This document shows positions 3,931-51,273 of a DNA stretch of 64,000 nt, one piece after another (position 1 is the stretch's first letter; every line of letters begins with the position of its first letter). The notes beneath the pieces were generated by a model. The model was given only the letters and a program-made list of their open reading frames with translations, was not told where the DNA came from and searched no databases. The stretch lies in assembly GCA_040390045.1 (NCBI GenBank), contig JAZJZC010000002.1:101113-165112 (forward strand), in the 5' to 3' direction. This DNA is from Patescibacteria group bacterium. Its GTDB lineage: Bacteria; Patescibacteriota; Minisyncoccia; Phycocordibacterales; SIBU01. A program made the position numbers and the translations under genes.

Positions 3931-5166
3931 TTATTCATGAACGACGCGTAAAATTTCTTCGAGCGTGGTGATGCCCTCCGCCACTTTTTTACAGCCGTCT
4001 TCCATCATGGTGGTCATGCCTTCTGCTGTTGCAATTTTTTTAATTTTGCTTGCTGGTGCTCGACGGATGATGGCCTCTTTAATTGCGTCATCTGCCACAA
4101 GTACTTCGTTGATGGAAATTCTGCCGCGGTAACCGCTGTTGCCACAGGACATACAGCCGGCGCCTCGGCGTATTTTTTTGCTATCTCTCAAAATTTTTTC
4201 AAGCGTTGTGCCCGCAAGATTTTTCTCTAGCACGGTTGGCAATGTAACTTCTTTTGCGCAGTGCTGGCAGATTTTCCGGACGAGCCTTTGTCCAATTGCT
4301 AAAGTTACCGTTGAGGCAATTAAGTATTCTTCGATGCCCATATCTAAAAGGCGTGGAAGGGTGGTGGCGGCATCGTTTGTGTGGAGAGTTGAGAGCACGA
4401 GATGCCCCGTCAGGGCGGCGTTGACGGCGACGGTTGCGGTTTCGGCATCTCTGATTTCACCAACCATAATAATATTTGGATCTTGGCGGAGGATGGATCG
4501 TAGGCCGTTGGCGAAGGAAAGTTTTGTTTGAGCATTGACTTGAATTTGTTCGATGTCTGAAACAGCGTATTCAATTGGGTCTTCAATAGTAATGACCGAA
4601 ACTTCCGGTGTGCTCAGCATTTTGACCAAGGTGTAAAGTGTCGTGGTTTTACCCGAACCTGTTGGACCAGTTGAGAGAATCATGCCGCTGGTTTTTTTCA
4701 TGGCGGTCGAAATTTTCTCGATGTCATTTTTACTGAAGCCGAGGTTTTCCAAACTGAAATTTTCAGCGCGGTCGGAGAGCAGACGCAACACCGCATTTTC
4801 GCCGTGGTAGGTCGGCACAATCGAAACACGGATGTCCACGATTTCGTTGGTATCTGAAAAAATGTGTCTGAAACGCCCGTCTTGAGTTGCCTGATGTTCA
4901 TCGGTTCGCAGACGTGCCAAAACTTTAATTCGCGAAATAATTTCGGAGTGAATTTTTTTGGGAAAGTCGTGCGCGTGCTGTAAGACGCCGTCAATTCGAA
5001 AACGGATTCGAACACTTTCAACGTTTGGATCAATGTGGATATCGGAAACTCGGGCGCCGTGCGCTTCTTCGAGAAGGCCGGCGAATAGATTGATAATGGA
5101 AAGATTTTCTCCGCGCAGAAGTTCTTGGGCGACACGTTCAATTTTTTCTGAAGAGGGGAGAGGCAT
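3931..5166 (-). CDS. GspE/PilB-family secretion ATPase (short form lacking N-terminal domains)
   Basis: Walker A GPTGSGKTT, Asp box, Walker B and His box (LVLSTLHTND) are present. The C-terminus has a tetracysteine cluster (CQHCAKE...CMSCGNSGYRGR). At 411 aa it is shorter than canonical PilB. Confidence 0.75.
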   Translation of the reverse strand: MPLPSSEKIERVAQELLRGENLSIINLFAGLLEEAHGARVSDIHIDPNVESVRIRFRIDGVLQHAHDFPKKIHSEIISRIKVLARLRTDEHQATQDGRFRHIFSDTNEIVDIRVSIVPTYHGENAVLRLLSDRAENFSLENLGFSKNDIEKISTAMKKTSGMILSTGPTGSGKTTTLYTLVKMLSTPEVSVITIEDPIEYAVSDIEQIQVNAQTKLSFANGLRSILRQDPNIIMVGEIRDAETATVAVNAALTGHLVLSTLHTNDAATTLPRLLDMGIEEYLIASTVTLAIGQRLVRKICQHCAKEVTLPTVLEKNLAGTTLEKILRDSKKIRRGAGCMSCGNSGYRGRISINEVLVADDAIKEAIIRRAPASKIKKIATAEGMTTMMEDGCKKVAEGITTLEEILRVVHE

Positions 5167-9361: not shown

Positions 9362-12300
9362 ATGGACTTTTTCTATACAGAAAAAAGGAGATTTTTACGT
9401 ACGATTCTACCCCTGTTAATCTTTTCAATCCTTTTCTTTCCTTCTCCCTCGAATGCCTCGGGACCTTCGGTGAATACACCTTCGGCTAACGCTGTATTAG
9501 CTGATACTACTCCCTCAGTTCTCTCTACCGTAGCGCAACAAGTTTACACTGGGGTTAACTCGTTCTTCTGCTCTCTCGGAAGTTTGTTTGGTGCTTGTGG
9601 AACTACTAAAACTACTACCGTTGTTACACCTTCTCTTCCAACTGCTCCAGTTGGAACTCCGAACTCGTCTGCGAGCATCGGAGCCACTCCCACGATTGTA
9701 AACAACTACATCACTCAACCAGTAATTCACGAAACTACAGTTTCAAACACAGGTGGTGTTACCCAAGGACAACTTGCAGCAGCGCTCAACCAACTCGAAA
9801 ACAAACTTTCTTCTAAATTCTTTTCCATTGTTGGAACTCCGAACTCGTCTTCGAGCATCGGAGCCGCACCGGTTAACATTACGCAAATTATTCAAAATCC
9901 TCCGTTACCTTTTGCAACGAGGATTGATAAATTGGAAAATGTGATTCTCACTACACCTACAGTTTCAGGAGGTTCATTTAGTAATCCTACGATCTCAGGA
10001 GGTTCCATTGTCGGAACTTCAATTTCCGCTACCACCGGATCTTTTTCAGGTGATGTTACGATCTTGGGCAATCTCATTGCACCCTCAAGTGTCACAACGT
10101 ACGGAGCTTCGATTGCCCCTTATTTTACGGCGACCTCAAGTACGGCGACATCTACGTTTGCAGGAGGAATGAATGTGGCGGGGGATACGGGGCTTACGGT
10201 GTTACAAAATGGAAAAGTTGGGATTGGGACGGCGGCGCCGCGGTTCGGCTTATCTCTTGGTTCCATAACTAATGCAGGCACCGACACTCCAGATACCATC
10301 GATCTCGGCGGTACTTACAGCTCGACCCCAGGTTCCAACCTCAAGCTTCGCGCGTATTGGGACGGTGCAGTTCAATATGGAATTGGCGTTTCTGCCAATC
10401 AGATGGAATTCGTAACGACCGTCGGTTCCCAAGTTTGGTTTAACGCCGGTAGTGAGAAAATGCGCCTTACTCAAACCGGCAACCTTGGCATCGGCACCAC
10501 CACTCCCGCCGCCCGTCTTTCACTCAACCAACCTTCCACCACCGCTCTCGGCCTGTATCTTGCCGGCTTCTCGAACGCCACTGTCGACCTCTTCCGCATT
10601 TCCACTTCAACCCTCACCGCAACCTCCACAGCTTTTGTTGTTAACTCCAACGGCAAAGTCGGGATTGGGACGACGAGTCCGCAAGCAACTTTGGGTATGA
10701 CGGGTAGTATCGGTGTCAATTCGAGTCATTTGTTTTTGGCGACGAATGGAAATGTTGGCATCGGCACAACCTCTCCAACCCAACGCCTCTCCCTCCAAGG
10801 CTCCGCTCTTTTTAGTGGAGACCTAAACCTCGCCAACTTGACCGCCACCGGAACAATCTCAACTCCAAACCTCACCGTCACCGGCTTTGTAAACGGCGGC
10901 GCTCAATGTTTGCAAATCAACGCCAGTGGAGTGGTCTCCGGAACTGGAGGAGTCTGCGGAGGAGCGGGGCAAAGTCCAGCGGGAGTGACCGGAACCATGC
11001 AATACAACAACGGGGGAGTCTTCGGAGGTACCGCCAACATTTTCTTTGACTCAACAAACAGCAGACTTGGTATCGGTACTTCCACCCCAGGTACCCTGAC
11101 TGAACTCTACGCTTCCAATACCGGAACCACACTCGCTACTCTCACCGAACCATCTCTCTCCATCACTAACTCCGCCACTACCGTCAATAACTTTGAGTCT
11201 CTCTTGTTCCGCCACATCACCTCCACCGGTGCCCAACAAACCATGGCCCAAATCTCTGGTGTTAACTTGGTGCACACCAACGCGATCGACTCCGGAGCTC
11301 TTGCCTTCCTCACCCGAAACGCCGGAACTCTTTCAGAGAAAATGCGATTGACTAACGCCGGTCTTTTTGGAGTTGGCACGAGCACCCCCTCATCTCTCGT
11401 CGAGGTTTACGGATCCAATACTGGGACTTTACTCACAACCTTTGCCGACCCAACTCTTTCCATTACCAACCCCAATACCACTGTCAACAACTTTTCCACT
11501 TTGGCCTTCAGACACATCACCTCAACCGGAGCTGAAACTACTATGTCCCAGATCTCTGGAGTGAACCTCGTCCATACCAATGCTGCTGATTCTGGAGCGC
11601 TCGCATTCCTCACAAGAAACACTGGCACCCTTGCTGAAAAAATGCGCATCACCAACCAAGGTCTTGTCGGTATTGGCACCACTTCTCCTGGCCTTATCCT
11701 CACCGTCTCCGCCACATCTTCTCTTTCCAACCTCGGACTCTTTGATGTGGTGGCAGTACCAAGTGCTGGAGCTACTACTACAGCTCTGCGAGTAATATCG
11801 AGCGGCAACGTTGGCATCGGTACCAGTTCTCCATACTCTAAGCTCTCAGTCGCTGGCGAAGTAGTCGCCCAAAACTTCACCGCCACCTCAACCGCCACTT
11901 CCACCTTCGCCGGAGGAGTGGGCATCGGCACCACCTCTCCCCAAGCCAACCTCGGTATCCAAGGTTCAATCGGAGTCAACGCTTCTCAACTCTACCTCGC
12001 CGCAACCGGTAACGTCGGCATCAACACCACCAACCCCGGCGCCCTCTTCTCCGTCAACGGCACCGCTTCCACCTCTCTCCTCACTATCTCCGGTATCACA
12101 ACCGCTACTGGTCAATGTCTCCAAATCAATTCACTCGGAGTTGTCTCAGGAACCGGAGCAGTTTGTGGAGGTGCCGGCTCAGTTCCCGCAGGAAGTAGTG
12201 GAGCACTACAATTCAATAACGCCGGAGTGTTCGGAGGAGGTAATCTTTCTTGGGACAACACCAACAACATTCTCTCAACAACAGCTGGCACATTCTCTCT

Positions 12301-15300
12301 CAATTCTTTCACTGGTAATGTAGGCATTGGCACAAGCACTCCCTACGCAGCACTTTCTATAGCTGGAGCGTCAGGTGTGGTGGCTAATATTTTTACGGCA
12401 ACTTCAACAACCGCCACTTCCACCTTTGCCGGAGGAGTTGGTATTGGCACCACGTCTCCTTCCGCCACGCTTTCAATTTCCGGAGACACCTACACCTCAG
12501 GAAATCTTTCTGCCACCAACATAACCGCTTCAGGTACTGCCAGCTCAAGCGCTCTCACTGTCTCCGGTCTCGCCACTCTCCAATCACTGACCATCTCAGG
12601 AATTGCATCCACTGCACAATGTTTACAAATCAATTCTCTCGGAGTCGTCTCAGGCACTGGAACAACCTGTGCCGGAGGTTCGGGTTCAGGATCAACAACG
12701 CCACAAGGAGTTTCTGGAGCGTTGCAGTTTAACAATGGGGGAGTACTTGGTGGGGCGAATCCGCTCATTTGGGACAACATAAATAATATTTTTTCTCTTT
12801 CGGATCCGACGAAGTTGGGGATCGGAACAACGAGTCCGCAAGCAACAATTGGTATGGCTGGATCAATCGGGGTTAATTCTTCGCAGTTGGTTTTGGCTTC
12901 GAGTGGATTTGTGGGTATTGGGACAACAACTCCATCTGATTTCCTACATGTTTTTGCAGATAATGCTCATACACGGGCAATAATTCAAGCGACAGGATCT
13001 TTTCTTGCTGGGGTATCATTGACGACAGATACGAGTCAATGGACTATCGATAACAGAGGAACATTTGATGCTCCAAATGATCGCTTCCTTATTACTCACC
13101 AAGGTGTCGCTGTTCGAATGGTGATAGATAACACCGGTAACGTTGGTTTTGGTACTTCTTCTCCTTACGCTAAAATCTCTATCGGTTCTACTGCAACCGC
13201 TTCAACAACTCTCGCTCTTCGGCCAATTGCTTCACAAACAGGAAATATTTTAGATATATACAACACCTCAGGAGCTCTGACATCAGTAATGACTGCAAGT
13301 GGTAAACTTGGTATTGGTACTTCGTCACCTTTTGCAACTTTTGCTGTAAATCCAATAGGGGGTCAGGCTAGTAATCAGTTTGTCGTCGGCTCCTCAACTG
13401 CCACCAACTTCATCATCACAAATGGGGGACTTGTCGGTATTGGAACTACTTCTCCTTCCCAAGTTCTTTCTGTCAACGGTGGCGGACTTTTCAACGGCGC
13501 TCTTTCGGGGGTCACCAGTCTCGCAATGAACGGCAATCTTTCGGGTGTCGCCAACCTCACAACAACCGGAACCGTCACTTTCGCTAATATCAATGGCTCC
13601 GCCCAATGTCTCCATGTTGATTCATCAGGTAACCTCACCGGCACAGGTAGCGACTGTGGAGGAGCAGGTTCATCCCCAGGAAGCCCAGTGGGAGGAATTC
13701 AATTCAACACCGGAGGAGTCTTCACTGCATCAACATCACTGACCTTCGACAACACCACCACAGGTCTTTTGGGTATTGGTACCACCACTCCAACTTCAAG
13801 TATCGAAATCTACAAAACGAGCTCCGGTACAACATTAGCTACCTTTGCCGAACCAACTCTTTCCATCACCAACCCCAACACAACAGTAAACAACTTCTCA
13901 ACTCTTGCTTTCCGTCACATCACCTCAACCGGAGCAGAAACCACTAACTCTCAAATTTCTGGTGTCAACCTCGTCCATACCAACGCAGCTGACTCGGGAG
14001 CTCTGGCATTCCTGACCAGAAACGCGGGAACCCTTGCAGAAAAAATGCGCTTGACCAACGCCGGTCTTTTGGGAGTTGGAACTTCAACTCCAGGAAGTCT
14101 CATCGAAGTCTACGCTTCTGCTGCAGGAACCACTCTAACCACTCACGCCGATCCAACCCTTTCAATCACCAACAGTAACACCACGGTAAACAATTTCTCT
14201 ACACTGGCTTTCAGACACATCACTTCAACTGGAGCAGAAACCACCAACTCTCAAATCTCTGGAATAAACCTCATACATACGAACGCCGCCGACTCTGGTA
14301 TCATGGCCTTCCTTACCCGAAACGCCGGAACTCTTGCTGAAAAAATGCGCATCACCAACACCGGACTCGTAGGTATTGGCACCACTACTCCGTTTGCGCA
14401 ACTTTCTGTTAATCCGAACGCCATCGGTTCTGCCGCCGCTTTCATCATCGGCTCTTCAACTGCTACTAACTTTGTCGTGACGAACGGAGGTAATGTTGGA
14501 ATCGGTACCGCTGTCCCCGGTTCACTTCTTACTGTTGCCGGTCTCACCAGCACCACCAACCTCACCGTCTCCGGAATCACGAACGGCTCTGGACAATGTC
14601 TCCAAATCAATTCCGCCGGAGCAGTTTCAGGAACCGGAGCAGTTTGTGGAGGTTCAGGATCAGTGCCACTAGGCTCTACTGGCGCACTCCAATATAACAA
14701 CGGCGGTCTCTTTGCTGGAGCAGCTACTATGATTTGGGACGCCACCAACAACCGACTCGGCATTGGAACTTCTACTCCTTACACCGCACTCGGAGTTGCC
14801 GGAACCGTAGTAGCTGATAACTACATTGCTACTTCAACGACAGCTCCATCAGTCTTTACTTACGCTTCCACCACCGCTCTCACTGTCACCGGAGTCAACT
14901 CACTCTTTGTGAGCGGCGTCATCAACTCCGCCACCTCAACTGCTGCCGGTATCACAACGACAGATGCCAACACCACTTCAACCTTTGCTGGTTCACTTTC
15001 CGTCAACGGCACTGCTTCAACTTCACTCCTAACCATTTCCAACATTAGTAATGGAGCCGGACAATGTTTGCAGATTAATGCGACGGGACAAGTGACGGGG
15101 ACGGGAGCTGCTTGTGGAGGAAGTGGATCGGTGCCGGGAGGAAGTACAGGGGCAATTCAGTACAATACCGGCGGAGTCTTCACGGGAGGAAATTTGACGT
15201 GGGACAATACGCTGAATGCTTTGAACACCAACACCGCAATTCTTTCTCTTGGAGGCAACGCGCTAGCAGGAAGCTTTACGGCAACATCGACGACAGCGAC

Positions 15301-18145
15301 GAGTACCTTTACCGGCGCAACCTTTTCTGGAAATGTAGGAATTGGCACAACCACTCCTTCTGCCAAACTTACCATCGACAATCGTGGAAATGACACCAAT
15401 CCCTTTTCAATTACCACAAATGGATCAGTGGGAAACTACACGGCTACAAACACCGCGATGTTCATCCGAGATGCCGCGGGGACAGAGCTCATGAGAATAT
15501 TTGCGAGTGATTCAAATGGAGCACACTTTAACTCAGGTAACCTCTACATGGGGTATCAAGCAGGTGCGTCCAACCCAGTCGCTAACGTTTCAACATCCGG
15601 TTATTACAATACAGGTGTTGGATATCAAACGATGCTATCTAATACCAGTGGTGTCAGTAATACCGCTAATGGTTGGGGATCGCTTTTGAATAATACCAGC
15701 GGTTCATATAACGCAGGTTTCGGTATGTATTCTCTAGCTATAAATTTTACAGGTTCAAATAACGCCAGTCTTGGTGCATATTCTCAGGTGTACAACGGTT
15801 CAGCAACCAGTAGCACTGCTGTTGGGTATGCTGCTGGTTCTGGACTTGGAGGTGGATCACAATTTAACAACCAAGGTGGCACCTACGTCGGATACCAAAG
15901 TGGTTACAACCTAAGAACCAACTCGGACTACAACACCTTCCTCGGCTACCAATCAGGATATGGAGTAACCACAGGTAAAGATAATATTATTCTTGGTACT
16001 GCCACTTCTTCAACAGCCATCGCCAATCTCACTACCGGTTCACAAAACATTTTAATTGGAAGTAATATTTCCTTCCCATCTGCAACAGCCAGTGGTCAAC
16101 TTACTATTGGAAACATCATTTACGGAACGGGAAATACAGGAGCAGGATCAAATTTGTCGACGGGGAAGATTGGTATTGGTACTGCAAATCCTACCCAAAA
16201 ACTTGATATTGCTGGGAGTCTTGCAATACAAGGAGGAACAATTAATTTTGGTACTGGTTCTGCAACTTCAACTCTCACTTCAGTGAGCGGCAATCTTGGC
16301 ATCGGCACCACTACTCCCGGCGCAACCTTCGCGGTCACTGGTAGCGGTCTCTTCTCAACACAAGTGAGCACTCCAAATCTTTCTATCACCGGCATTACCA
16401 ACGGCGGAGCACAATGTTTGCAAATCAATGCACAAGGTTTGGTTTCTGGTACTGGTGGAGTCTGTGGAGGTGGGGGAAGCGGATCGGTTCCTGCGGGATC
16501 AGACGGAGCATTGCAGTTTAATAGTGGGGGAGTTTTCGGAGGAGGACATCTATTCTGGAACGACACAACAAATAATTTGACTACCGATTCAGGAGACTTC
16601 TTGCTGAATCCAACTGGAAATATTGGTATTGGTACTACGACAACAAATTCTACGTTCAAAGTGACTCTGCAAGGTTCACAAAATATTGTGGACGGTACGC
16701 TGTATCTACACTCTGGAGCGATACCAGGCGATAGTGCTACCGTCTCAGGGAGTGTTACATCAGCAGTGAGAGGTTTGCAACTGACTGGAGGAGGAGCTTT
16801 TGGTAGCAGTACCATAACCGCTTGGCACAATAGCGGTGGCGCGTTAGAAATCAATGGTAAGAGTACCGGTGTAGGAGCAACCACAGCTCAAATAACCCTA
16901 ATGCCGTCAACAAGTAGCTTTACTCCTTATCTATCTTTTAGCACAGGCGGTACTGCTTTTTCACTAACCGAAAGAATGAAAATTACTTCTACTGGCCGAA
17001 TTGGTATTGGTACCAGCACTCCCGGCTCTTTCTTCTCAATCCTGGATATCGCCAACTTCGCTACTTCTACCGGCGTTACTTTCTATAGAGGTCTCACCAC
17101 TCCCAACTTCATTGCAACCTCCTCTCTTGCTTCTGTCTTCCCATTCGCTTCCACTACCGCCATCACCTCAAGTGGTTCAGCATACTTTGCAACTCTCGGT
17201 GGTGCTGTCGGAATCGGCACAACTTCTCCTTCCTCGCTATTGTCTCTCACTCAACCCACCAACACCGAAGCCGGCGGCCTCTGGATCGCAGGCACCGACG
17301 GCGACTACCGCTCTATATATATATCTGACACCACAGGCGTTCTCTCCTTCGGAGGGGGAGACGCCGCCGGAGTCTACAACACCGCTACCCTCAATGACGC
17401 AGGAGCTTGGACTAATGCATCCGATAGAAAATACAAGGAAAACATTGCCGACTTAAACACCAAGTACACCCTCGATACCTTGATGAGCATCCAACCTCGC
17501 TTCTACACCATGAAAGGCACTGGAAAACCTCAGATTGGATTCATTGCTCAAGAACTTAAACTCGTTTTGCCTGAAGTCGTCGAAGGAGTAGATGGCTCCA
17601 TGGGAATCTCCTACGGAAACATGGTGGCACTGCTGGTAGAAGCCGTACAAGAATTAGCAAAAAAAGTCACGGGGTTTGCAAGTGAATTTACGACGAAGAA
17701 ACTTTGTGTGGATGACGTTTGTGTGACTCGCGACCAATTCAAAAAAATGATTGAAAATTCGGGAGCTACTTCAACAGGTTCAAGTGGTTCTGGAAGTGAG
17801 AGTGCCGCGCCCGCTGCGGGCGCGGCCTCCTCGACTCCTTCTACTGACATTACTCCACCAGTTATCACCTTGACCGGCGACAATCCAGCCACCATTTCTC
17901 TCGGTTCCTCATACATTGACCTTGGTGCAACTGTTACTGACAACGTTTCCCAAAACATCACAGCTGACCTTTTTGAAAATACTGTTGATACCACAACCGC
18001 GGGAACGTATTATGTAATTTATACGGCACATGATGCCGCGATGAACATTGCCACTTCGACGCGAAGTGTAGTTGTCAGTAATCCTGTTGTAACTCCCACC
18101 GCAACATCGACTGATCCCGTAGCAACCACCACGCCGACGGAATAA
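9362..18145 (+). CDS. giant secreted repeat fibre protein (beta-helix/tail-fibre-like) with C-terminal intramolecular chaperone autoproteolysis domain and terminal Ig-like domain
   Basis: Probable start MDFFYTEKRRFLRTILPLLIFSILFFPSPSNASG (signal peptide). About 2,900 aa of G/T/S-rich repeats (NVGIGTTSP; TATSTFAGG). The C-terminus has NASDRKYKENIADL...GFIAQELKLVLPEVV, resembling the S74 tail-fibre chaperone, then a PPVITLTGDNPATISLGSSYIDLGATVTDNV Ig-like segment. Confidence 0.75.
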   Translation: MDFFYTEKRRFLRTILPLLIFSILFFPSPSNASGPSVNTPSANAVLADTTPSVLSTVAQQVYTGVNSFFCSLGSLFGACGTTKTTTVVTPSLPTAPVGTPNSSASIGATPTIVNNYITQPVIHETTVSNTGGVTQGQLAAALNQLENKLSSKFFSIVGTPNSSSSIGAAPVNITQIIQNPPLPFATRIDKLENVILTTPTVSGGSFSNPTISGGSIVGTSISATTGSFSGDVTILGNLIAPSSVTTYGASIAPYFTATSSTATSTFAGGMNVAGDTGLTVLQNGKVGIGTAAPRFGLSLGSITNAGTDTPDTIDLGGTYSSTPGSNLKLRAYWDGAVQYGIGVSANQMEFVTTVGSQVWFNAGSEKMRLTQTGNLGIGTTTPAARLSLNQPSTTALGLYLAGFSNATVDLFRISTSTLTATSTAFVVNSNGKVGIGTTSPQATLGMTGSIGVNSSHLFLATNGNVGIGTTSPTQRLSLQGSALFSGDLNLANLTATGTISTPNLTVTGFVNGGAQCLQINASGVVSGTGGVCGGAGQSPAGVTGTMQYNNGGVFGGTANIFFDSTNSRLGIGTSTPGTLTELYASNTGTTLATLTEPSLSITNSATTVNNFESLLFRHITSTGAQQTMAQISGVNLVHTNAIDSGALAFLTRNAGTLSEKMRLTNAGLFGVGTSTPSSLVEVYGSNTGTLLTTFADPTLSITNPNTTVNNFSTLAFRHITSTGAETTMSQISGVNLVHTNAADSGALAFLTRNTGTLAEKMRITNQGLVGIGTTSPGLILTVSATSSLSNLGLFDVVAVPSAGATTTALRVISSGNVGIGTSSPYSKLSVAGEVVAQNFTATSTATSTFAGGVGIGTTSPQANLGIQGSIGVNASQLYLAATGNVGINTTNPGALFSVNGTASTSLLTISGITTATGQCLQINSLGVVSGTGAVCGGAGSVPAGSSGALQFNNAGVFGGGNLSWDNTNNILSTTAGTFSLNSFTGNVGIGTSTPYAALSIAGASGVVANIFTATSTTATSTFAGGVGIGTTSPSATLSISGDTYTSGNLSATNITASGTASSSALTVSGLATLQSLTISGIASTAQCLQINSLGVVSGTGTTCAGGSGSGSTTPQGVSGALQFNNGGVLGGANPLIWDNINNIFSLSDPTKLGIGTTSPQATIGMAGSIGVNSSQLVLASSGFVGIGTTTPSDFLHVFADNAHTRAIIQATGSFLAGVSLTTDTSQWTIDNRGTFDAPNDRFLITHQGVAVRMVIDNTGNVGFGTSSPYAKISIGSTATASTTLALRPIASQTGNILDIYNTSGALTSVMTASGKLGIGTSSPFATFAVNPIGGQASNQFVVGSSTATNFIITNGGLVGIGTTSPSQVLSVNGGGLFNGALSGVTSLAMNGNLSGVANLTTTGTVTFANINGSAQCLHVDSSGNLTGTGSDCGGAGSSPGSPVGGIQFNTGGVFTASTSLTFDNTTTGLLGIGTTTPTSSIEIYKTSSGTTLATFAEPTLSITNPNTTVNNFSTLAFRHITSTGAETTNSQISGVNLVHTNAADSGALAFLTRNAGTLAEKMRLTNAGLLGVGTSTPGSLIEVYASAAGTTLTTHADPTLSITNSNTTVNNFSTLAFRHITSTGAETTNSQISGINLIHTNAADSGIMAFLTRNAGTLAEKMRITNTGLVGIGTTTPFAQLSVNPNAIGSAAAFIIGSSTATNFVVTNGGNVGIGTAVPGSLLTVAGLTSTTNLTVSGITNGSGQCLQINSAGAVSGTGAVCGGSGSVPLGSTGALQYNNGGLFAGAATMIWDATNNRLGIGTSTPYTALGVAGTVVADNYIATSTTAPSVFTYASTTALTVTGVNSLFVSGVINSATSTAAGITTTDANTTSTFAGSLSVNGTASTSLLTISNISNGAGQCLQINATGQVTGTGAACGGSGSVPGGSTGAIQYNTGGVFTGGNLTWDNTLNALNTNTAILSLGGNALAGSFTATSTTATSTFTGATFSGNVGIGTTTPSAKLTIDNRGNDTNPFSITTNGSVGNYTATNTAMFIRDAAGTELMRIFASDSNGAHFNSGNLYMGYQAGASNPVANVSTSGYYNTGVGYQTMLSNTSGVSNTANGWGSLLNNTSGSYNAGFGMYSLAINFTGSNNASLGAYSQVYNGSATSSTAVGYAAGSGLGGGSQFNNQGGTYVGYQSGYNLRTNSDYNTFLGYQSGYGVTTGKDNIILGTATSSTAIANLTTGSQNILIGSNISFPSATASGQLTIGNIIYGTGNTGAGSNLSTGKIGIGTANPTQKLDIAGSLAIQGGTINFGTGSATSTLTSVSGNLGIGTTTPGATFAVTGSGLFSTQVSTPNLSITGITNGGAQCLQINAQGLVSGTGGVCGGGGSGSVPAGSDGALQFNSGGVFGGGHLFWNDTTNNLTTDSGDFLLNPTGNIGIGTTTTNSTFKVTLQGSQNIVDGTLYLHSGAIPGDSATVSGSVTSAVRGLQLTGGGAFGSSTITAWHNSGGALEINGKSTGVGATTAQITLMPSTSSFTPYLSFSTGGTAFSLTERMKITSTGRIGIGTSTPGSFFSILDIANFATSTGVTFYRGLTTPNFIATSSLASVFPFASTTAITSSGSAYFATLGGAVGIGTTSPSSLLSLTQPTNTEAGGLWIAGTDGDYRSIYISDTTGVLSFGGGDAAGVYNTATLNDAGAWTNASDRKYKENIADLNTKYTLDTLMSIQPRFYTMKGTGKPQIGFIAQELKLVLPEVVEGVDGSMGISYGNMVALLVEAVQELAKKVTGFASEFTTKKLCVDDVCVTRDQFKKMIENSGATSTGSSGSGSESAAPAAGAASSTPSTDITPPVITLTGDNPATISLGSSYIDLGATVTDNVSQNITADLFENTVDTTTAGTYYVIYTAHDAAMNIATSTRSVVVSNPVVTPTATSTDPVATTTPTE
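10900..16560 (+). repeat. intragenic protein-level repeat array (7x GxQCLQIN..VSGTG.VCGG modules; 4-5x ~100-aa LTEPSLSITN...EKMRLTNAGL units)
   Basis: Recurrent QCLQIN(A/S)xGxVSGTGxVCGG occurrences at about 10.91, 12.11, 12.62, 13.60, 14.59, 15.06 and 16.42 kb. Near-identical ~100-aa units at 11.08-11.70 kb and 13.78-14.40 kb. DNA copies have diverged at synonymous sites. Confidence 0.7.
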
Positions 18146-21744: not shown

Positions 21745-21862
21745 AATACGAAAATACGAAAAAGGTTACGAATATACGAACTTATACAAAAACTTTTTTG
21801 CAGTCACTACGGTTTTCGTACAATTTCGTATTTTCGTTAGTCCGCATTTCGTATCGAAGGAC
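21745..21862. repeat. R1 palindromic intergenic element (TACGAA-hexamer array / core / TTCGTA-hexamer array)
   Basis: Left half is caaTACGAAaaTACGAAaaaggtTACGAAtaTACGAA. Core is caaaaacttttttgcagtcactacggttttcgt. Right half is tttcgtattttcgttagtccgcatttcgtatcgaaggac. The last 37 nt are identical to the R1 copy at 35868-35903. Confidence 0.7.
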
Positions 21863-23395: not shown

Positions 23396-23546
23396 GATAC
23401 GAAAATACGAAATGAAAACGAAAATACGAAATCATACAAAAACTTTTCCGGTGCCATTACGGTTTTCGTTTATAATTTTGCTCACACGTTTAATAAATGC
23501 GTCAGTTTTCGTATAGTTTCGTATTTTCGTATAATAATTTCGTATC
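23396..23546. repeat. R1 palindromic intergenic element (copy 2)
   Basis: Left half gaTACGAAaaTACGAAatgaaaaCGAAaaTACGAAatcatacaaaaacttttccggtgccattacggttttcgtt. Right half 5x TTTCGTA. It fills the whole pilT-pilC spacer. Confidence 0.7.
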
Positions 23547-25352: not shown

Positions 25353-25718
25353 ATGAAAAATTCAAAAGGTTTTACCCTTATCGAACTTTTGGTAGTTATC
25401 GCAATTATCGGTATCTTGTCTTCTGTTGTTTTGGTTAGCCTTAACAGTGCTCGCCAGAGAGCTAAGGATGCCGCCTTCAAAGCTGAGGCCACTGGAATAG
25501 TTCCAGGACTTGTAAGCATCTGTGATCAGGCCAACGTTGTTGTCGGTGATTTGGGTAGTCCTTCTACTTACTCGGCAGCTGCTGCTTTTGGAACAATTGT
25601 TCAGAGCTGTGGATCTTCTGGAACAGGAGTTTGGACTATGACAGTGACTGCAACCAACGGCGCCGTTTCTACTGCTGATGTTGCTGCATGTTCACAAAGT
25701 GGTTGTACATTCAGTTAG
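25353..25718 (+). CDS. type IV pilin (major-pilin candidate)
   Basis: [26 protein letters not shown] prepilin motif. 121 aa with a C-terminal Cys pair (CSQSGCTFS). Confidence 0.8.
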
Positions 25719-33570: not shown

Positions 33571-33685
33571 TCGAAGCACTAAGCACGAAATTCGAAACAA
33601 ACCTTTAAATTTCAATGTTTAAAATTTCAAAAATTAGAACTTAGATATTGTTTCGAATTTCGATATTCGTATTTCGTGCTTAACA
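33571..33685. repeat. R1-related palindromic element (aagcacgaaattcgaaac ... gtttcgaatttcgatattcgtatttcgtgctt)
   Basis: Inverted-repeat arms 33581-33598 and 33650-33681 in the gatC-gatA spacer. The ttcgaatttcg / atttcgtgctta motifs recur at 43050-43095. Confidence 0.6.
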
Positions 33686-35774: not shown

Positions 35775-35903
35775 TTCAATACGAAAATACGAATTATATA
35801 TACGAACATACGAAATAATACGAAAACTATTCTGGTGTTACTGAAATTTTCGTATCGTTTCGTATTTTCGTTAGTCCGCATTTCGTATCGAAGGACGAGA
35901 CCA
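35775..35903. repeat. R1 palindromic intergenic element (copy 3)
   Basis: caaTACGAAaaTACGAAttatatatacgaacatacgaaataatacgaaaac ... ttttcgtatcgtttcgtattttcgttagtccgcatttcgtatcgaaggac. The 3' 37 nt are identical to copy 1. Confidence 0.7.
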
Positions 35904-38862: not shown

Positions 38863-38960
38863 TATACGAAAGGGGTACGAAAATACGAAAAAATACGAAA
38901 GCTTTTTTGGTACCATCACGGTTTTCGTATAGTTTCGTATTTTCGTAATTTACTTTCGTA
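38863..38960. repeat. R1 palindromic intergenic element (copy 4)
   Basis: ctaTACGAAaggggTACGAAaaTACGAAaaaaTACGAAagcttttttggtaccatcacggttttcgtatagtttcgtattttcgtaatttactttcgta. It runs right up to the prfA ATG. Confidence 0.7.
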
Positions 38961-38961
38961 T

Positions 38962-39921
38962 ATGGATTTAGAACCCTATAAAAAAAATCAAAAGACTAGC
39001 TATCTGGCAGAACGGTATGAAGCTCTCGTTAAGGAAGAACAAGAGCTTTTAAAAATGGCTGAAAAAGACCCTGGGTTAAAAGAATTGACCGAAGAAGAAC
39101 TTTCGGCTATTCGTGCTGAACAAAAAATTCTGGCCGATCAAATGCAGAAAAATCTGGCTGAAGATGAGGTCGAGGAGGAATTTCCAAGAGAAGCCATTCT
39201 TGAAGTTCGAGCTGGGGCTGGTGGGGAGGAAGCCGCACTTTTTGCCGAAGAGCTTGCCATCATGTACAAAAAGTACGCCGAGACCGTTGGTTGGTCTTGG
39301 AAAACGGTTTCTCAATCGGAAAGTTCTCTTGGTGGTTACAAAGAAGCCACATTTGAAATTTCTGGAGATGATGTGTATAAAAAATTACGTTTTGAAACCG
39401 GAGTTCATCGAATTCAGCGGGTTCCAGCTACGGAAAAAATTGGCCGCGTGCATACCTCAACCGCTTCGGTGGCGGTTCTCCCAATTCGTAAAAAAGTTTC
39501 ATTTGAGATCAACCCGGTTGATTTGGAAATGGAATTTTCGCGTTCAGGTGGAGCCGGCGGACAAAATGTTAACAAGGTGGAAACAGCAGTGCGCCTCATT
39601 CACAAGCCTACCGGACTTGATGTGCGTTCAACGTCCGAAAGAAGTCAGGTGAAAAACCGAGAAAAGGCTTTGGCGATTTTGTCGGCCAAAATTTTGGCGC
39701 TGAAAGAGGAGGAGGAAGCCAAAAAATACGCCGGTGTGCGTAAAAATCAAATCGGTACCGGCGATCGTTCCGAAAAAATCAGAACCTACAACGTTTTACA
39801 GGATCGCGTAACCGATCACCGAATTAAAGAATCATGGCACAATATTGCCGGAATTTTCGAGGGAAATATTGGTGCGATTATCGAAGCTCTTTCCGCAGAG
39901 GCAGAAAAAAACTCAAATTAA
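38962..39921 (+). CDS. prfA: peptide chain release factor 1
   Basis: Start [25 protein letters not shown] (PxT tripeptide) and GGQ motif ([11 protein letters not shown]). The longer listed ORF from 38650 reads through rpmE and the R1 repeat and is rejected. Confidence 0.85.
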
Positions 39922-44511: not shown

Positions 44512-44573
44512 TTGAAGTTTTCAAGGATTCTTAATGTTTGGGCGTATTTCTCCTTTTTCTTCTTTACTATATA

Positions 44574-45380
44574 ATGACTGCTATGCAGGACAAGGAACAG
44601 GTTGCACAAGGACATATTCACCCGATTTCACGGGCGATTTTTGATATTCGAACAATCTTTGCCGAACTGGGTTTTGCTGTTGCGGTGGGACCTGAAATGG
44701 AGGATGAGTGGCACAATTTTGACGCGCTTAATATTCCTAAAGATCATCCGGCACGCGATATGCAGGACACCTTCTGGCTCAAGAATGCGGAACAGACGCA
44801 GAACAACGCAGAACGAACGCCGAAGAATACCCACGAAAATTTTCCGCATCAGTCCGCGTCCATTCCGCGCAGTTCTGCACTTCTGCGTACTCATACAAGT
44901 CCGGTACAAATAAGATATATGGAAAAAAAACTCGAAGCTGGCATACAGCCGCCATATCGAATTATCGTGCCAGGAAAAGTTTTTAGAAATGAAGCCACGG
45001 ACGCTACTCACGAAGCGCAATTTTTTCAGGTTGAGGGGTTGTATGTTGATAAAAATGTTTCTATGGCTCACTTGAAAGGTGTTCTTGAGTTTTTCTTTAA
45101 AAAGTTTTTCGGCAACGATGTAGTCATTCGATTTCGTCCAAGTTTTTTTGCGTTCACCGAGCCGTCGGTGGAAGTTGATATGAAATTTAAGGGCAAATGG
45201 CTTGAAATGATGGGAGCAGGGCTCGTGCATCCAAACGTTTTAAAGGCCGCAGGCGTGCCGGAAGGCTTTAGTGGGTTTGCTTTCGGCGGAGGCATTGATC
45301 GAATGGTGATGGTGAAGTACGGCATCACCGATATTCGATTACTGTATTCCGGAGATTTGCGCTTAGTTAATCAGTTCTAA
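44574..45380 (+). CDS. pheS: phenylalanine-tRNA ligase alpha subunit (short form) with in-frame repeat insertion
   Basis: Start MTAMQDKEQ immediately after tataat (leaderless?). Class II motifs FRNEATDATHEAQFFQVEG and GFAFGGGIDRMVMVKYGI. About 30 extra residues between DTFWL and LLRTHTSPVQ. Confidence 0.85.
   Translation: MTAMQDKEQVAQGHIHPISRAIFDIRTIFAELGFAVAVGPEMEDEWHNFDALNIPKDHPARDMQDTFWLKNAEQTQNNAERTPKNTHENFPHQSASIPRSSALLRTHTSPVQIRYMEKKLEAGIQPPYRIIVPGKVFRNEATDATHEAQFFQVEGLYVDKNVSMAHLKGVLEFFFKKFFGNDVVIRFRPSFFAFTEPSVEVDMKFKGKWLEMMGAGLVHPNVLKAAGVPEGFSGFAFGGGIDRMVMVKYGITDIRLLYSGDLRLVNQF
44786..44882 (+). repeat. R2-like palindromic insertion inside the pheS reading frame
   Basis: tgcggaacagacgcagaacaacgcagaacgaacg ... 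cgcatcagtccgcgtccattccgcgcagttctgca. It encodes NAEQTQNNAERTPKNTHENFPHQSASIPRSSA without breaking the frame. Confidence 0.55.
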
Positions 45381-45421
45381 AATAGATTTAAGATTTAGGA
45401 TTAAAGATTTAAGAATAAGAA
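45376..45421. repeat. R3 motif copy (atagatttaagatttaggattaaagatttaagaataag)
   Basis: Near-identical to 38133-38175. Sits in the pheS-pheT spacer. Confidence 0.5.
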
Positions 45422-45427
45422 AAAATA

Positions 45428-47302
45428 ATGCTTATATCCTACAACTGGCTACAATCATATTTTGACGAAACACTTCCTGAACCGGAAAAGCTAGGGGAAC
45501 TTTTGACGTTCGCCTCTTTTGAGTTGGAAGGAATTGAAAAAAAGGGCAGTGACACAATTCTTGATTTAAAAGTTTTACCTGACCGCGCTTGTTATGCACT
45601 TTCGCATCGCGGAATGGGATACGAAGTTGCAGCCATTACCGGCTTGGCTAAGAAAAAACAGGAACAGATTTTACCGCCAGTAGGAAAAACTCGACCATTC
45701 AATGTGCGCGTGGAAGACTCTGATTTGTGTGCGCGATATATGGCCCGAGTAATTGAAAATGTTACCCAAAGAGAATTGCCGGTGGTGAAAGAGAGATTGC
45801 AGAGTGTTGGCCAGCGCTCGATCAACCCAGTTGTTGATAGTGCCAATTTTGTGATGCTTGATCGAGGTCAACCGCTCCATGCGTTTGACGCGGATAAAGT
45901 GAAGGGGGATATTGTAGTGCGTAGAGCAAAAACAGGGGAAAAAATAATTACACTTGATAATCGCGAGGTCGACTTGGATGAAACTATTTTGATTATTGCA
46001 GATGAAGAAGCGCCACTTGCGATCGCGGGAATTAAGGGTGGGAAAAGAGCTGAGGTTACGTCGAGCACAAAAAATTTAATTCTCGAGTCGGCCAGTTTCA
46101 ATGCGTCATATATTCGTAAAACCTCGGACAAGCTCGGCATTAGAACTGACGCATCAAAGCGATACGAAAATAAATTTTCAGCGGATATGACGAGTAAAGG
46201 AATGAATGATTTTAGCGCGCTCTTGTTTGAAATGGATTCACAAATTTTGGCCGGTGAAGTAATCGATATCTATTCCAATGTTCTGCAGAACATTGGAATA
46301 GATATAACAGCAGAGTATATTTCAAATAGGTTAGGGTTGGATTTACCAGAAGAGGTAATTGTCGATGTTCTCAGATGTCTAAAAATTGAAGTTAAAAAAA
46401 GAGGGAAGGAGTTAATACTCACGCCACCAATCTTTCGCGCTGACCTCTTGATTCCCGAGGACATTGCAGAAGAGGTGGGAAGAATTGTCGGGTACGATAA
46501 AGTTCCGGCCACTCTTCCACCTGTCCTCAAAATGGAACTAGAAATTCCAAAGCAGTTTTACTATGAATGGAAAATTCGTGAGATTTTGGCGAACGCTGGT
46601 TTTTCGGAGGTGATGACGTCATCATTTTCATCGAGTGGGGAAATTGCGATTGAGAAACCGCTGGCAGAAGATAAAAAATTCACTCGGCCAAATTTACGAA
46701 ACAACTTTGCAATGGCGCTCAAACTCAATTTCGGCAACGCTTCACTTTTTGGTTCTGAAGAAATAAAAATTTTTGAAATAGGAAAAGTTTTTGGAAGAGG
46801 TGGCGAGCATGCCGCACTTGCTGTAGGATTTGCGGGACCAAAAAAGAAAGTCGCTTCTGAACTTTCTGCTGTCGTCGCGCTTCTTTCAGAAAAACTTGGA
46901 TGCAACCTAGAAGGGGAAACCAAAGACGGCATTTTTGAAACTAATTTGGATAAAGCCCTGAGCGATCTGCCACAGCCAAAAAGTTCGGACGTCCTAACTT
47001 TTCCTCTTTGTGACGCCATGTTTAAGCCATTTTCTGTCTATCCTTTTATTGTTCGCGATATTGCGCTCTTTGTTCCAGCCGGCACAGATTCTGAAACTAT
47101 CCACCAATTAATTTTAGGAGACGCCGGAGATTTTGTGGTTCACTCGAAACTATTCGACCGATTTGAGAAAGATGGAAAAGTTTCCTACGGCTTTCGTTTA
47201 GTGTTTCAATCTATGGGGCGGACGTTGACCGATGAAGAAATAAATAAAGTTATGGAAAAAGTGTACGAAACATTAAAAGCTAAGGGTTGGGAAATTAGAT
47301 AA
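45428..47302 (+). CDS. pheT: phenylalanine-tRNA ligase beta subunit (short form)
   Basis: MLISYNWLQSYFDETLPEPEKL N-terminus and B3/4 domain. 624 aa (bacterial PheT is usually about 800). Confidence 0.85.
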   Translation: MLISYNWLQSYFDETLPEPEKLGELLTFASFELEGIEKKGSDTILDLKVLPDRACYALSHRGMGYEVAAITGLAKKKQEQILPPVGKTRPFNVRVEDSDLCARYMARVIENVTQRELPVVKERLQSVGQRSINPVVDSANFVMLDRGQPLHAFDADKVKGDIVVRRAKTGEKIITLDNREVDLDETILIIADEEAPLAIAGIKGGKRAEVTSSTKNLILESASFNASYIRKTSDKLGIRTDASKRYENKFSADMTSKGMNDFSALLFEMDSQILAGEVIDIYSNVLQNIGIDITAEYISNRLGLDLPEEVIVDVLRCLKIEVKKRGKELILTPPIFRADLLIPEDIAEEVGRIVGYDKVPATLPPVLKMELEIPKQFYYEWKIREILANAGFSEVMTSSFSSSGEIAIEKPLAEDKKFTRPNLRNNFAMALKLNFGNASLFGSEEIKIFEIGKVFGRGGEHAALAVGFAGPKKKVASELSAVVALLSEKLGCNLEGETKDGIFETNLDKALSDLPQPKSSDVLTFPLCDAMFKPFSVYPFIVRDIALFVPAGTDSETIHQLILGDAGDFVVHSKLFDRFEKDGKVSYGFRLVFQSMGRTLTDEEINKVMEKVYETLKAKGWEIR

Positions 47303-47314
47303 TTTTTTCACTAT

Positions 47315-47654
47315 GTCATCCTCGCGAATGCGGGGACCCAGGTATGATGTATTACGTTTACATTTTAGCTAGTCAACGGAACGGCACTTTGTATATTGGA
47401 ATTACTTCAGATTTACAAAAGAGAATTTATCAGCATAAAACAAATGCAGTTTAAGGATTTACTCAAAAATATGCTGTTCATACTTTGGTTTACTATGAAT
47501 ATACCGAGAATGTTGAAGCAGCAATTGCACGAGAGAAACAACTCAAAAAATGGAATCGCAAGTGGAAATTGGATTTAATTGAAAAAGATAATCCGCAATG
47601 GAGAGATTTGCAGGGGATGTTATGAGTCTGGATCCCCGCATTCGCGAGGATGAC
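47315..47654. mobile_element. GIY-YIG nuclease cassette bracketed by 27-bp terminal inverted repeats
   Basis: Left gtcatcctcgcgaatgcggggacccag (47315-47341). Right ctggatccccgcattcgcgaggatgac (47628-47654), whose reverse complement matches the left at 26 of 27 positions. Confidence 0.6.
47344..47625 (+). pseudogene. GIY-YIG (UPF0213/YhbQ-like) nuclease gene with a single in-frame TAA at 47452-47454
   Basis: MMYYVYILASQRNGTLYIGITSDLQKRIYQHKTNAV*GFTQKYAVHTLVYYEYTENVEAAIAREKQLKKWNRKWKLDLIEKDNPQWRDLQGML. Homologues have a sense codon (K/S) at the stop position. Confidence 0.6.
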
Positions 47655-47735
47655 AGAGGGTTGTTTAGAAATGGCAATTTTGTAATTATAAAAAATAAAA
47701 GAAAAATTTGTACGATATATCGTACAAATAAAAAC

Positions 47736-47765: not shown

Positions 47766-48809
47766 TTATTTTTTCGGAAGTATTAGCAGTTGGCCGTCAC
47801 ATGGCCTTGTAAGATAGGTAAGATTGTTCTTGCCCAGATTGATATTTACAACCCGGCTTTTGCCGATTAGAAATCCCGCCGACGTTGACTCGGCGACGTG
47901 GTACACTTTCTCGCCGATCGGGAATGAAAGCTCGTTACTCGGAACAAAATCTCCAGCAACGAGAACCGTGACATGCGACGGGTAGTATCCCAGATAGTAG
48001 GGAATTTCGTACTGCTCGAGCAGGCTAGCAAGGAGCACTGCTTTCGCGCCACACGTGCCTGTTTTGGTGAGCAAGGTTTCCTCAGGTTTTTTTATGACCT
48101 GTCTGGAGTTTGCCCATTGTATCTCTTCCGGATCGTATTCGATTTCGGTAGAGACGAAGTCGAGGAGTTTCTGGGCGATTTTTTCAGGCTTGATTTCACC
48201 CTTAACCAGATTTTTCGCCAAGCGACTGAGCGACGGCTCTCCTTTTTTACCGACCACCGAGCCGAAATTGGCAATGACGTGATCGATTCCTCTGCCGTCT
48301 ACGTACTCAGAGAAAAAGTATTTTCCGCCAATCACCGATTTATTATCCATGAAGTCCGCCAGTTCCTGCGGAGTTGTTTCAAACTTCACGGACGGGTAAG
48401 GGACGACAATTTTTGCTTCGGAGTTGATCACGAAATTTTCCATCGGGAAACAGACAAGGCGTCTACCCTTTTGTGTGTACTGATATTTACCCAAATGAGC
48501 GAGGTCACCCCTTTCTTCACCCATCTCCACGTCCTCTAAGGGCAAACTGCAAACTTTTCGCAGGTCGCTCAGGAGTTTCGCCTTGGGAAATGACAGGTAC
48601 AGCATTCGACTGTCAAGGTCCAAAATTTCCAACTCGGCTTCCGTGCCCGTCAGTTGAGCCATTAGGTTTTCCGAGGAGAACTTGGGTTGCGCTAAAAAGT
48701 CGAGCATCGCCAAAGCGAGGGAACGCCGAGGTTTGATTGGAGATGACATGTGAACCAAGAAGCCAACGAGACCCAATAGCAACAAAATAGCAAAGATCTT
48801 TGTTTTCAT
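47766..48809 (-). CDS. secreted transglutaminase-like (Cys-His-Asp papain-like) domain protein
   Basis: Signal peptide MKTKIFAILLLLGLVGFLV; TGTCGAKAVLLASLLEQYEIPYYLGYYPSHVTV resembles the transglutaminase-core G-x-C...A..F....R..GIP-R motif. Confidence 0.45.
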   Translation of the reverse strand: MKTKIFAILLLLGLVGFLVHMSSPIKPRRSLALAMLDFLAQPKFSSENLMAQLTGTEAELEILDLDSRMLYLSFPKAKLLSDLRKVCSLPLEDVEMGEERGDLAHLGKYQYTQKGRRLVCFPMENFVINSEAKIVVPYPSVKFETTPQELADFMDNKSVIGGKYFFSEYVDGRGIDHVIANFGSVVGKKGEPSLSRLAKNLVKGEIKPEKIAQKLLDFVSTEIEYDPEEIQWANSRQVIKKPEETLLTKTGTCGAKAVLLASLLEQYEIPYYLGYYPSHVTVLVAGDFVPSNELSFPIGEKVYHVAESTSAGFLIGKSRVVNINLGKNNLTYLTRPCDGQLLILPKK

Positions 48810-51058: not shown

Positions 51059-51066
51059 GGCGCTCG

Positions 51067-51273
51067 GAATCATTTCCCAAGAACACGGATAAAGCCGGCC
51101 AGCGCCGGCTTTTCCTATGCTCAACTCGCCACAGTCAAGAGCCCCTCGCGATTACACTCAGGGTCGTTGACTGACCAGCTGGCTCGTTTCCGCAATGTTC
51201 TTGGGAAATGATTCCTCGCTGAGATACCCCCTTAAACTTCAGAAAGTTTAAGGGGGTAGGGGGAAATCTCAGC
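51067..51273. repeat. structured palindromic element: perfect 20-bp inverted repeat (ggaatcatttcccaagaaca) flanking the gyrB terminator, plus a 56-nt extended hairpin
   Basis: IR arms at 51067-51086 and 51196-51215. Terminator hairpin aaagccggccagcgccggcttttcc at 51091-51115. Nested hairpin gctgagat-a-ccccc-ttaaactt-cagaa-agtttaa-ggggg...atctcagc at 51218-51273. Confidence 0.55.

Follow-up and report, generated by a model that had tools for sequence, protein, structure and literature searches.

The closest described counterparts of the locus analysed here are the Ssn systems (Chenal et al. 2025, Nat Commun, PMC11893778). Their single-domain GIY-YIG enzymes, of ~94 amino acids, bind a hairpin repeat, named NTS or more generally SRM, on single-stranded DNA, which they cleave a few nucleotides upstream of the repeat; SRMs typically lie on either side of the nuclease gene. 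SsnA of Neisseria meningitidis (94 amino acids, single-domain GIY-YIG, CDD cd10448) binds the NTS repeat CGTCATTCCCGCGMAVGCGGGAATCYRG only as single-stranded DNA and is inactive on double-stranded DNA, on RNA and on the reverse strand; cleavage is lost in the mutants Y6A, Y17A and E64A, and the specificity of Ssn enzymes depends on the sequence of the motif as well as on its shape (PMC11893778). Among ssnA homologues, 71% have at least one SRM nearby and 42% have SRMs on both sides; that such modules are selfish and mobile was raised by the same authors as a hypothesis and not as a result (PMC11893778). A related class of repeats, the CGTC-tagged REPs, has been described for which no dedicated enzyme was found (Di Nocera et al. 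2013, PMC3733652).

The locus lies in a stretch of 64,000 nt (hereafter the window) taken from a contig of 189,921 bp of the NCBI MAG 'Patescibacteria group bacterium', and so differs from the published Ssn systems in its host, the Patescibacteria being absent from the text of PMC11893778. Its features are as follows.

45428 to 47302: pheT, with its stop codon 41 nt 5' of the ssn-type ATG
47314 to 47341, plus strand: left SRM, an NTS-like hairpin motif in forward orientation, TGTCATCCTCGCGAATGCGGGGACCCAG, agreeing with the published SRM pattern at all positions
47319 to 47325 with 47330 to 47336, plus strand: stem of the left SRM, closed by the loop GAAT
47344 to 47625, plus strand: ssn-type gene, 93 codons followed by TGA, for a single-domain GIY-YIG nuclease, broken at codon 37
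47452 to 47454, plus strand: premature TAA, codon 37 (Glu, Asp or Lys in homologues)
47628 to 47655, minus strand: right SRM in reverse orientation, reading TGTCATCCTCGCGAATGCGGGGATCCAG on the minus strand and matching the published SRM pattern

The left SRM begins 12 nt past the pheT stop codon and ends 2 nt before the ATG, and the right SRM begins 3 nt past the ssn stop codon. In the preliminary description, made from the DNA alone, the gene was said to stand between 27-bp inverted repeats. This was confirmed: the arms at 47315–47341 and 47628–47654 (the latter as its reverse complement) are identical at 26 of 27 positions, and a repeat finder extended them to 31 nt (47311–47341 and 47628–47658), of which 94% (29/31) are complementary. 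The suggested search for further copies of the arms was run within the window, and at ≤3 mismatches the 27-nt arm had no third site in the 64 kb beside the two flanking ones (0 in 100 shuffles). The arms are the cognate motif of the nuclease family encoded between them, and they can be regarded as terminal inverted repeats (31 nt, 94% complementary) around the gene of an enzyme that would act on them.

The translation of 47344–47625 reads MMYYVYILASQRNGTLYIGITSDLQKRIYQHKTNAV, the in-frame TAA, and then GFTQKY...QGML up to the terminal stop codon; there is one in-frame TAA, and the six-frame ORF listed at 47396–47578 is indeed in another frame, as had been remarked earlier. That a 93-codon GIY-YIG ORF adjoins pheT is upheld by this translation, by the 41-nt gap and by Pfam, which placed a GIY-YIG domain at residues 2–76 (E = 1.4e-18) and no second domain; the product is thus, at 93 codons with GIY-YIG only, of the ~94-residue single-domain type, for which 5656 homologues of 93–96 amino acids were counted. 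The comparison with N. gonorrhoeae was made by tblastn against PLSDB, where a chromosome of this species is filed as a plasmid. The window protein aligned there with a 94-amino-acid protein over residues 1–89 at 65% identity (E = 2e-31), without gaps apart from one of a single residue near the C-terminus, and seven NTS copies lie within 1.4 kb of the corresponding ORF. With the N. gonorrhoeae protein taken as the SsnA orthologue, this similarity is within the threshold by which Ssn proteins are defined (E < 1e-10 to SsnA; PMC11893778). At 2.17 Mb each, the two N. gonorrhoeae records concerned (NZ_CP119140.1, our L232, and NZ_CP119142.1) are evidently chromosomes that PLSDB lists among plasmids, and their ssn-type gene is without an annotated feature in the PLSDB gene table. 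Tyr6, Tyr17 and Glu64 are invariant in a 23-sequence alignment and are found at the same numbering in the window copy, in which, before the stop as well as after it, every one of the 34 invariant and 16 nearly invariant positions of the family alignment is retained. By its sequence, the window gene, from a Patescibacteria genome, belongs with the Ssn nucleases (CDD cd10448).

Two other identities were considered. The label 'UPF0213/YhbQ-like' given to the gene earlier proved imprecise. BH0048 (PDB 1ZG2) of UPF0213/YhbQ is also a small single-domain GIY-YIG protein; it belongs, however, to a different CDD family, and its match to the window protein is marginal (E = 8e-4, 23 bits), the E-value being some 27 orders of magnitude above that of the Ssn match (2e-31 with the N. 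gonorrhoeae protein). To our knowledge, no link exists between UPF0213/YhbQ and SRM repeats. GIY-YIG homing endonucleases of group I introns and phages (I-TevI, I-BmoI, Seg) likewise combine this domain with a free-standing small gene in an intergenic spacer, but I-TevI-type enzymes cut double-stranded DNA and carry a C-terminal DNA-binding domain which the window protein lacks; with one domain in 93 residues, and 22.1 bits to TIGR01453 against a cut-off of 56, a group I intron or homing endonuclease was discarded.

The SRM pattern of PMC11893778, HGTCWYN(0-2)YYVSBRHN(0-5)WNVSBRGN(0-2)RNCYNB, has exactly two matches in the 64-kb window, and these are the two arms (mean of 0.16 in shuffled windows); the gene is flanked by the motifs at 47314–47341 (plus strand) and 47628–47655 (minus strand), with no other in the window. 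Of the 28 positions of the Neisseria NTS consensus, 22 agree in the left arm and 23 in the right, so that 5–6 differ. Each arm is itself a hairpin of 7–8 bp (TCCTCGC-GAAT-GCGGGGA) with a T·G mismatch in the stem, the outermost A-T pair being absent from the left arm. Folded as single-stranded DNA, the left arm gave −5.9 kcal/mol, a value no better than that of 18 of 200 shuffles, and the right arm −8.4 kcal/mol (z = −3.4). All elements of an oriented SRM/CGTC-type motif are present, namely the 5' (C/T)GTC tag, the GC-rich 7–8-bp stem, the short loop, the C after the stem and the CCA-type tail. The window motif differs from the NTS as a variant with a TGTC tag, a CCTCGC/GCGGGG stem containing the T·G mismatch and a GAAT loop, and this unusual stem is common to both arms. 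By the published pattern, the arms are two copies of the Ssn recognition hairpin (SRM/NTS type) and not generic transposon ends.

Conservation of the hairpin itself was analysed in 56 distinct 28-nt SRM copies, retrieved by degenerate pattern, which limits the variation that can be seen in them: 98.4% of cells are paired in the 8-bp stem, 5 of the 8 pairs changed on both sides, none of 500 shuffles reached the covariation value and no slid register came near it. Extensions present on homologous proteins (SFPWKRESR, FQGNDK, GFPLSRE) resemble translated GC-rich palindromes. SRMs of the CCTCGC variant are dispersed on at least 120 metagenome contigs and have an ssn gene within 150 nt in only 3 of them; in their flanks, conservation extends to a pair of pyrimidines immediately 5' of GTCAT and no further. 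Being dispersed and mostly without ssn, the CCTCGC-type SRM behaves like the CGTC-type REPs (PMC3733652), and the window SRM is of the CGTC/TGTC-tagged REP type.

Taken feature by feature, the window resembles the SsnA system (PMC11893778) in its ~94-residue single-domain GIY-YIG protein, in Y6, Y17 and E64 at the same positions and in a forward SRM before and a reverse SRM after the gene. It is unlike Neisseria in that the motif is present as two flanking copies in 64 kb, where a Neisseria genome holds hundreds, and in that the window gene, unlike that of SsnA, carries a nonsense codon; many dispersed copies of the motif are not seen within these 64 kb of the host genome, which hold the two flanking copies only. 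The CGTC-tagged REPs (Neisseria dRS3, Rickettsia RPE-type palindromes; Di Nocera et al. 2013, PMC3733652) share the ~28-nt hairpin with a 5' (C/T)GTC tag and a 3' CCA-type tail; unlike them, the window repeats flank their nuclease gene, as in PMC11893778, and are not multi-copy in the window. REPtrons (RAYT tyrosine transposase genes with GTAG-type REPs) and IS200/IS605 elements are also built of a small gene between inverted hairpins recognised in single-stranded DNA, with solo hairpins dispersed elsewhere, whereas their enzyme, of unrelated fold and chemistry, is a HUH/Y1 transesterase in place of a hydrolytic GIY-YIG nuclease and the REPs are of the GTAG and not the CGTC type.

The layout around the gene was then surveyed in 80 homologous loci taken from genomes across many phyla. 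Where an SRM lies within 100 nt upstream, the one closest to the gene has forward orientation in 32 loci and reverse orientation in 8, and as a rule it ends 5–24 nt ahead of the start codon; on the downstream side, 29 loci have a reverse and 9 a forward SRM as the closest one, typically no more than 40 nt past the stop codon. SRMs are found on both sides in 22 of the 80 loci within 100 nt and in 25 within 400 nt; in the remaining 55 genome loci at least one side is without an SRM inside 400 nt. The two SRMs around one gene differ from each other by 1.6 mismatches on average, against 2.6 between loci. Several contigs of viral classification also carry the SRM-ssn-SRM layout. Genes of the family usually have a forward SRM ahead of their ATG and a reverse one past their stop codon, and the window is arranged likewise. 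We consider it highly probable that the cassette is an Ssn module, i.e. a gene for a cd10448-type GIY-YIG nuclease with two inverted copies of its cognate SRM.

How such a module would work can be proposed because the enzymes of Neisseria and Wolbachia have been characterised, and it is from them that enzymatic activity and cut positions are extrapolated to the window. Once the DNA becomes single-stranded, the motif would fold into a 7–8-bp hairpin; the Ssn protein would bind this hairpin together with the oriented 5' tag (GTCAT) and the 3' tail (the C just past the stem), and would then nick the motif strand a few nucleotides 5' of TGTCAT, while double-stranded DNA, RNA and the complementary strand should be left alone. 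Cuts are predicted just outside the unit at either end, in the top strand near 47310 and in the bottom strand near 47659. From the window copy only a 36-residue fragment without Glu64 would be expected, which would make the locus a recently inactivated solitary module, with no other SRM target in the 64 kb.

It had been claimed that the ORF is intact apart from the TAA at 47452, and this is correct: one nonsense codon was found and no other decay. The residues expected at its position had been given as Lys or Ser; among the 80 homologues they are in fact Glu in 42, Asp in 22, Lys in 7 and Ser in 1, with GAA as the commonest codon (25/80). TAA being a single base away from GAA, one G-to-T change explains the stop. 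Both the catalytic Arg and the catalytic Glu had been placed past the stop, which is true of Glu64, downstream along with Asn71, and untrue of Arg27, upstream along with His31 (both of the upstream pair invariant). The pN value relative to the closest homologue is 0.10 before the stop and 0.087 after it, synonymous sites being saturated. Recoding of TAA was rejected, since 18 of the 22 long ORFs in the window are closed by TAA, pheT included, and the TAA of pheT comes after the C-terminal residues with which its homologues also end; the host organism does use TAA as a stop. Interrupted copies do occur in the family (1 of 80 loci, L029, with an in-frame stop elsewhere in the gene). An exact look-up of the window pheT found no other contig of the host organism on record; an identical NCBI protein (P0121) exists.

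As assembled, then, the reading frame is interrupted at codon 37 and the gene is a pseudogene member of the family. An active enzyme is not expected from the 36-residue fragment, which would keep Tyr6, Tyr17, Arg27 and His31 and lose Glu64 and Asn71. Because there is a single nonsense codon, the invariant residues are kept and pN is equally low on both sides, the break is therefore either very recent or an assembly error, and the recent decay proposed earlier is supported in this form (one stop, invariants kept, pN of ~0.09–0.10). Under the second of these options, the TAA would stem from an error of sequencing or assembly, or would represent a minority variant of the MAG, and the gene would be intact and the Ssn module functional. 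This would account for the commonest codon at the position (GAA, 25/80) being one base away, for every invariant residue being kept on either side of the stop and for the equally low pN before (0.10) and after (0.087) it, and the source is a single MAG contig; a G-to-T substitution is, however, atypical of homopolymer or indel errors, and nonsense-interrupted copies do exist in the family (L029, 1 of 80 loci). We regard an error as unlikely, if by no means far-fetched.

The order glycosyltransferase (minus strand), pheS, pheT, variable spacer, gyrB is common to the window and its relatives. In the window, the cassette is followed by a convergent transglutaminase-like gene at 47766–48809 (minus strand). 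Between the right SRM and this gene lies a perfect 24-bp palindrome (47706–47729, ATTTGTACGATA followed by TATCGTACAAAT) with a T-run on the minus strand, which looks like the terminator of the transglutaminase-like gene. The pheS ORF, 44538–45380 from a TTG start, has 280 amino acids where relatives have 234–245, and its low-complexity stretch QTQNNAERTPKNTHENFPHQSASIPRSS may be an insertion. Right after the gyrB stop codon there is an inverted repeat of 38 nt (51066–51103 and 51178–51215, 79% complementary, 74 nt apart), and past it a second GC-rich hairpin near 51227–51257.

Several other repeats were seen in the window. A palindromic intergenic repeat of ~70–110 nt, composed of TACGAAA-type heptamer units (e.g. 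TACGAAAATACGAAAAAATACGAAAGC...GGTTTTCGTATAGTTTCGTATTTTCGTA) and unrelated to the SRM, occurs at 21755–21862, 23405–23531, 35789–35896 and 38864–38971, and also at 33572–33676. Two short-period intergenic repeats are of the AACACGGAACATGGAGCACAGAACA type (both strands; 24752, 25175, 29957, 30038, 40772, 40813 and 41813) and of the ATAGATTTAAGATT...AAGATTTAAGAAT type (28065, 38137 and 45382–45428, the last copy filling the pheS-pheT spacer). From about 9600 to 17300 extends a very large coding region; the degenerate repeats in it number dozens (direct-repeat families D1–D4, D11 and D13–D15) and, judged from the DNA, appear to encode motifs of the G-x-V-G-I-G-T type, so that the product may be a giant repetitive surface protein. 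At 25354, 26030, 26495 and 28782, four paralogous gene starts have one 5' segment in common (repeat families D8/D9), in which a prepilin-type N-terminus, recognised by eye from the DNA, suggests a type IV pilin-like gene cluster.

Occupation of the pheT-gyrB spacer varies among relatives. Two of them (L089 and L093) have 125–145 nt between pheT and gyrB, without ssn or SRM, and two others (L091 and L092) have unrelated genes in the spacer. The closest Ssn homologue, P0001 (81–82% identical), is encoded directly after pheT in L001, where one blastn alignment runs colinearly with the window. In L001 (2950–2999), the first part of the window arm recurs unchanged as a half-motif, GTCATCCTCGC, which stands 12 nt past the pheT stop codon and is followed by a T-run and then by a complete SRM of canonical sequence; no SRM was found downstream of the ssn gene. 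The end of the L001 contig looks, by eye, like the start of a transposase gene. In pheT, the window is 63% identical to L001, and L001 is 68–69% identical to L091, L092 and L093. As the two ssn carriers, the window and L001, are not closest to each other by pheT, the cassette was either lost several times or inserted more than once. The proposed comparison of the pheT 3' flank did yield bare pheT-gyrB spacers, in relatives with pheT 62–65% identical in which no breakpoint was alignable; neither a precise empty site nor SRM remnants were found after pheT in L089–L093. In a distant lineage (L164, pheT 41% identical), a CCTCGC-variant SRM at 4606–4633 follows pheT at a distance of 115 nt, with a terminator-like hairpin in between and no ssn gene, and in L213 a variant SRM lies about 1.6 kb from pheT. 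These two cases among 120 variant-SRM contigs are too few to conclude that pheT is a preferred target.

Whether the SRM-ssn-SRM unit moves bears directly on the preliminary description, which had seen in it a selfish mobile cassette. A compact nuclease cassette bounded by inverted repeats is what we find; its mobility is unproven, there being no target-site duplication and single contexts throughout. No direct repeat adjoins the arms, and the relatives with a bare spacer, 62–65% identical in pheT, gave no precise empty site. The window holds one copy of the cassette, (near-)identical copies in different genomic contexts were not observed, and three recurrent homologues (P0001, P0106 and P0027, on 11, 8 and 13 contigs from different samples) each have one context. 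In an all-against-all blastn of the loci, the only informative pair was formed by two paralogous cassettes of one MAG (L010 and L020), whose similarity breaks off precisely at the left SRM's outer edge, the right boundary being lost at a contig end; this gives weak support to movement as a unit.

According to the mobile-element explanation, SRM-ssn-SRM is, or was until recently, an autonomous element with the nuclease as its transposase or homing enzyme, and the window contains a dead insertion after pheT. The insertion-sequence-like layout, remarked on also by the Ssn authors (PMC11893778), would suit it, as would predicted cuts just outside both arms, the sharp left boundary of the L010/L020 pair and the cassettes on contigs classified as viral. 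The pheT-gyrB spacers are empty in L089 and L093 and hold unrelated genes in L091 and L092, and of the ssn carriers, which share 63% identity in pheT, L001 is closer (68–69%) to the ssn-less L091–L093; but the 'empty' relatives are 62–65% identical in pheT, a distance at which loss and gain are indistinguishable. Against it also stand the missing target-site duplication, the single copy in 64 kb, the single context of each of the homologues on 11, 8 and 13 contigs and the many homologues with a one-sided SRM. Cuts on opposite strands, made in single-stranded DNA only, match no known transposition chemistry. We know of no strand-joining activity of Ssn. An autonomous element is on this evidence improbable. 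A more far-reaching form of the idea, a mobile Ssn unit having already been floated by the Ssn authors (PMC11893778), is that the GIY-YIG single-strand nuclease is the long-missing mobilising enzyme of the CGTC-type REPs and SRM-ssn-SRM a true transposable or homing unit. This we hold to be decidedly improbable; if it were true, the unit would have been inserted or excised repeatedly at a preferred site, which would be why it is scattered over the pheT-gyrB spacers of lineages that are not sisters (the window and L001).

Very improbable indeed is a role at the RNA level, with the arms either pairing as a ~30-bp stem that loops the gene out of the pheST transcript, a stem of this kind having been advanced earlier, or acting as a REP-type stabiliser or terminator for pheT: REPs are commonly downstream of genes and thought to be transcribed (PMC3733652), and a long stem is predicted for 47290–47680 (−106.7 kcal/mol, z = −5.4), but such a fold arises from any inverted repeat, SsnA binds the motif as single-stranded DNA and not as RNA (PMC11893778), no T-run follows either arm, the terminator scan was negative on the plus strand, Rfam and a tRNA scan returned nothing in the cassette region, and, since SRMs are so often one-sided (the closest homologue has a 5' SRM only, and in 55 of 80 loci one side at least has none within 400 nt), the family does not conserve the long stem.

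Read as an Ssn module, the seemingly novel miniature transposon is one more case of the Ssn nuclease with its SRM hairpins, a system published in 2025; the biology is known, and no new type of element is involved. A repaired protein together with the variant motif would offer one more enzyme-site pair for single-stranded DNA tools, and the window and its relatives, with an empty spacer, a one-sided SRM and the half-SRM of L001, may serve as comparison material for tests of module movement. The locus further indicates that nonsense-interrupted ssn copies exist and that the Ssn/SRM system, with a distinct SRM variant, is present in the small genomes of Patescibacteria. A solitary module whose repeat has not expanded over at least 64 kb would be a better fit to a relic or selfish remnant than to a genome-wide role such as transformation control.
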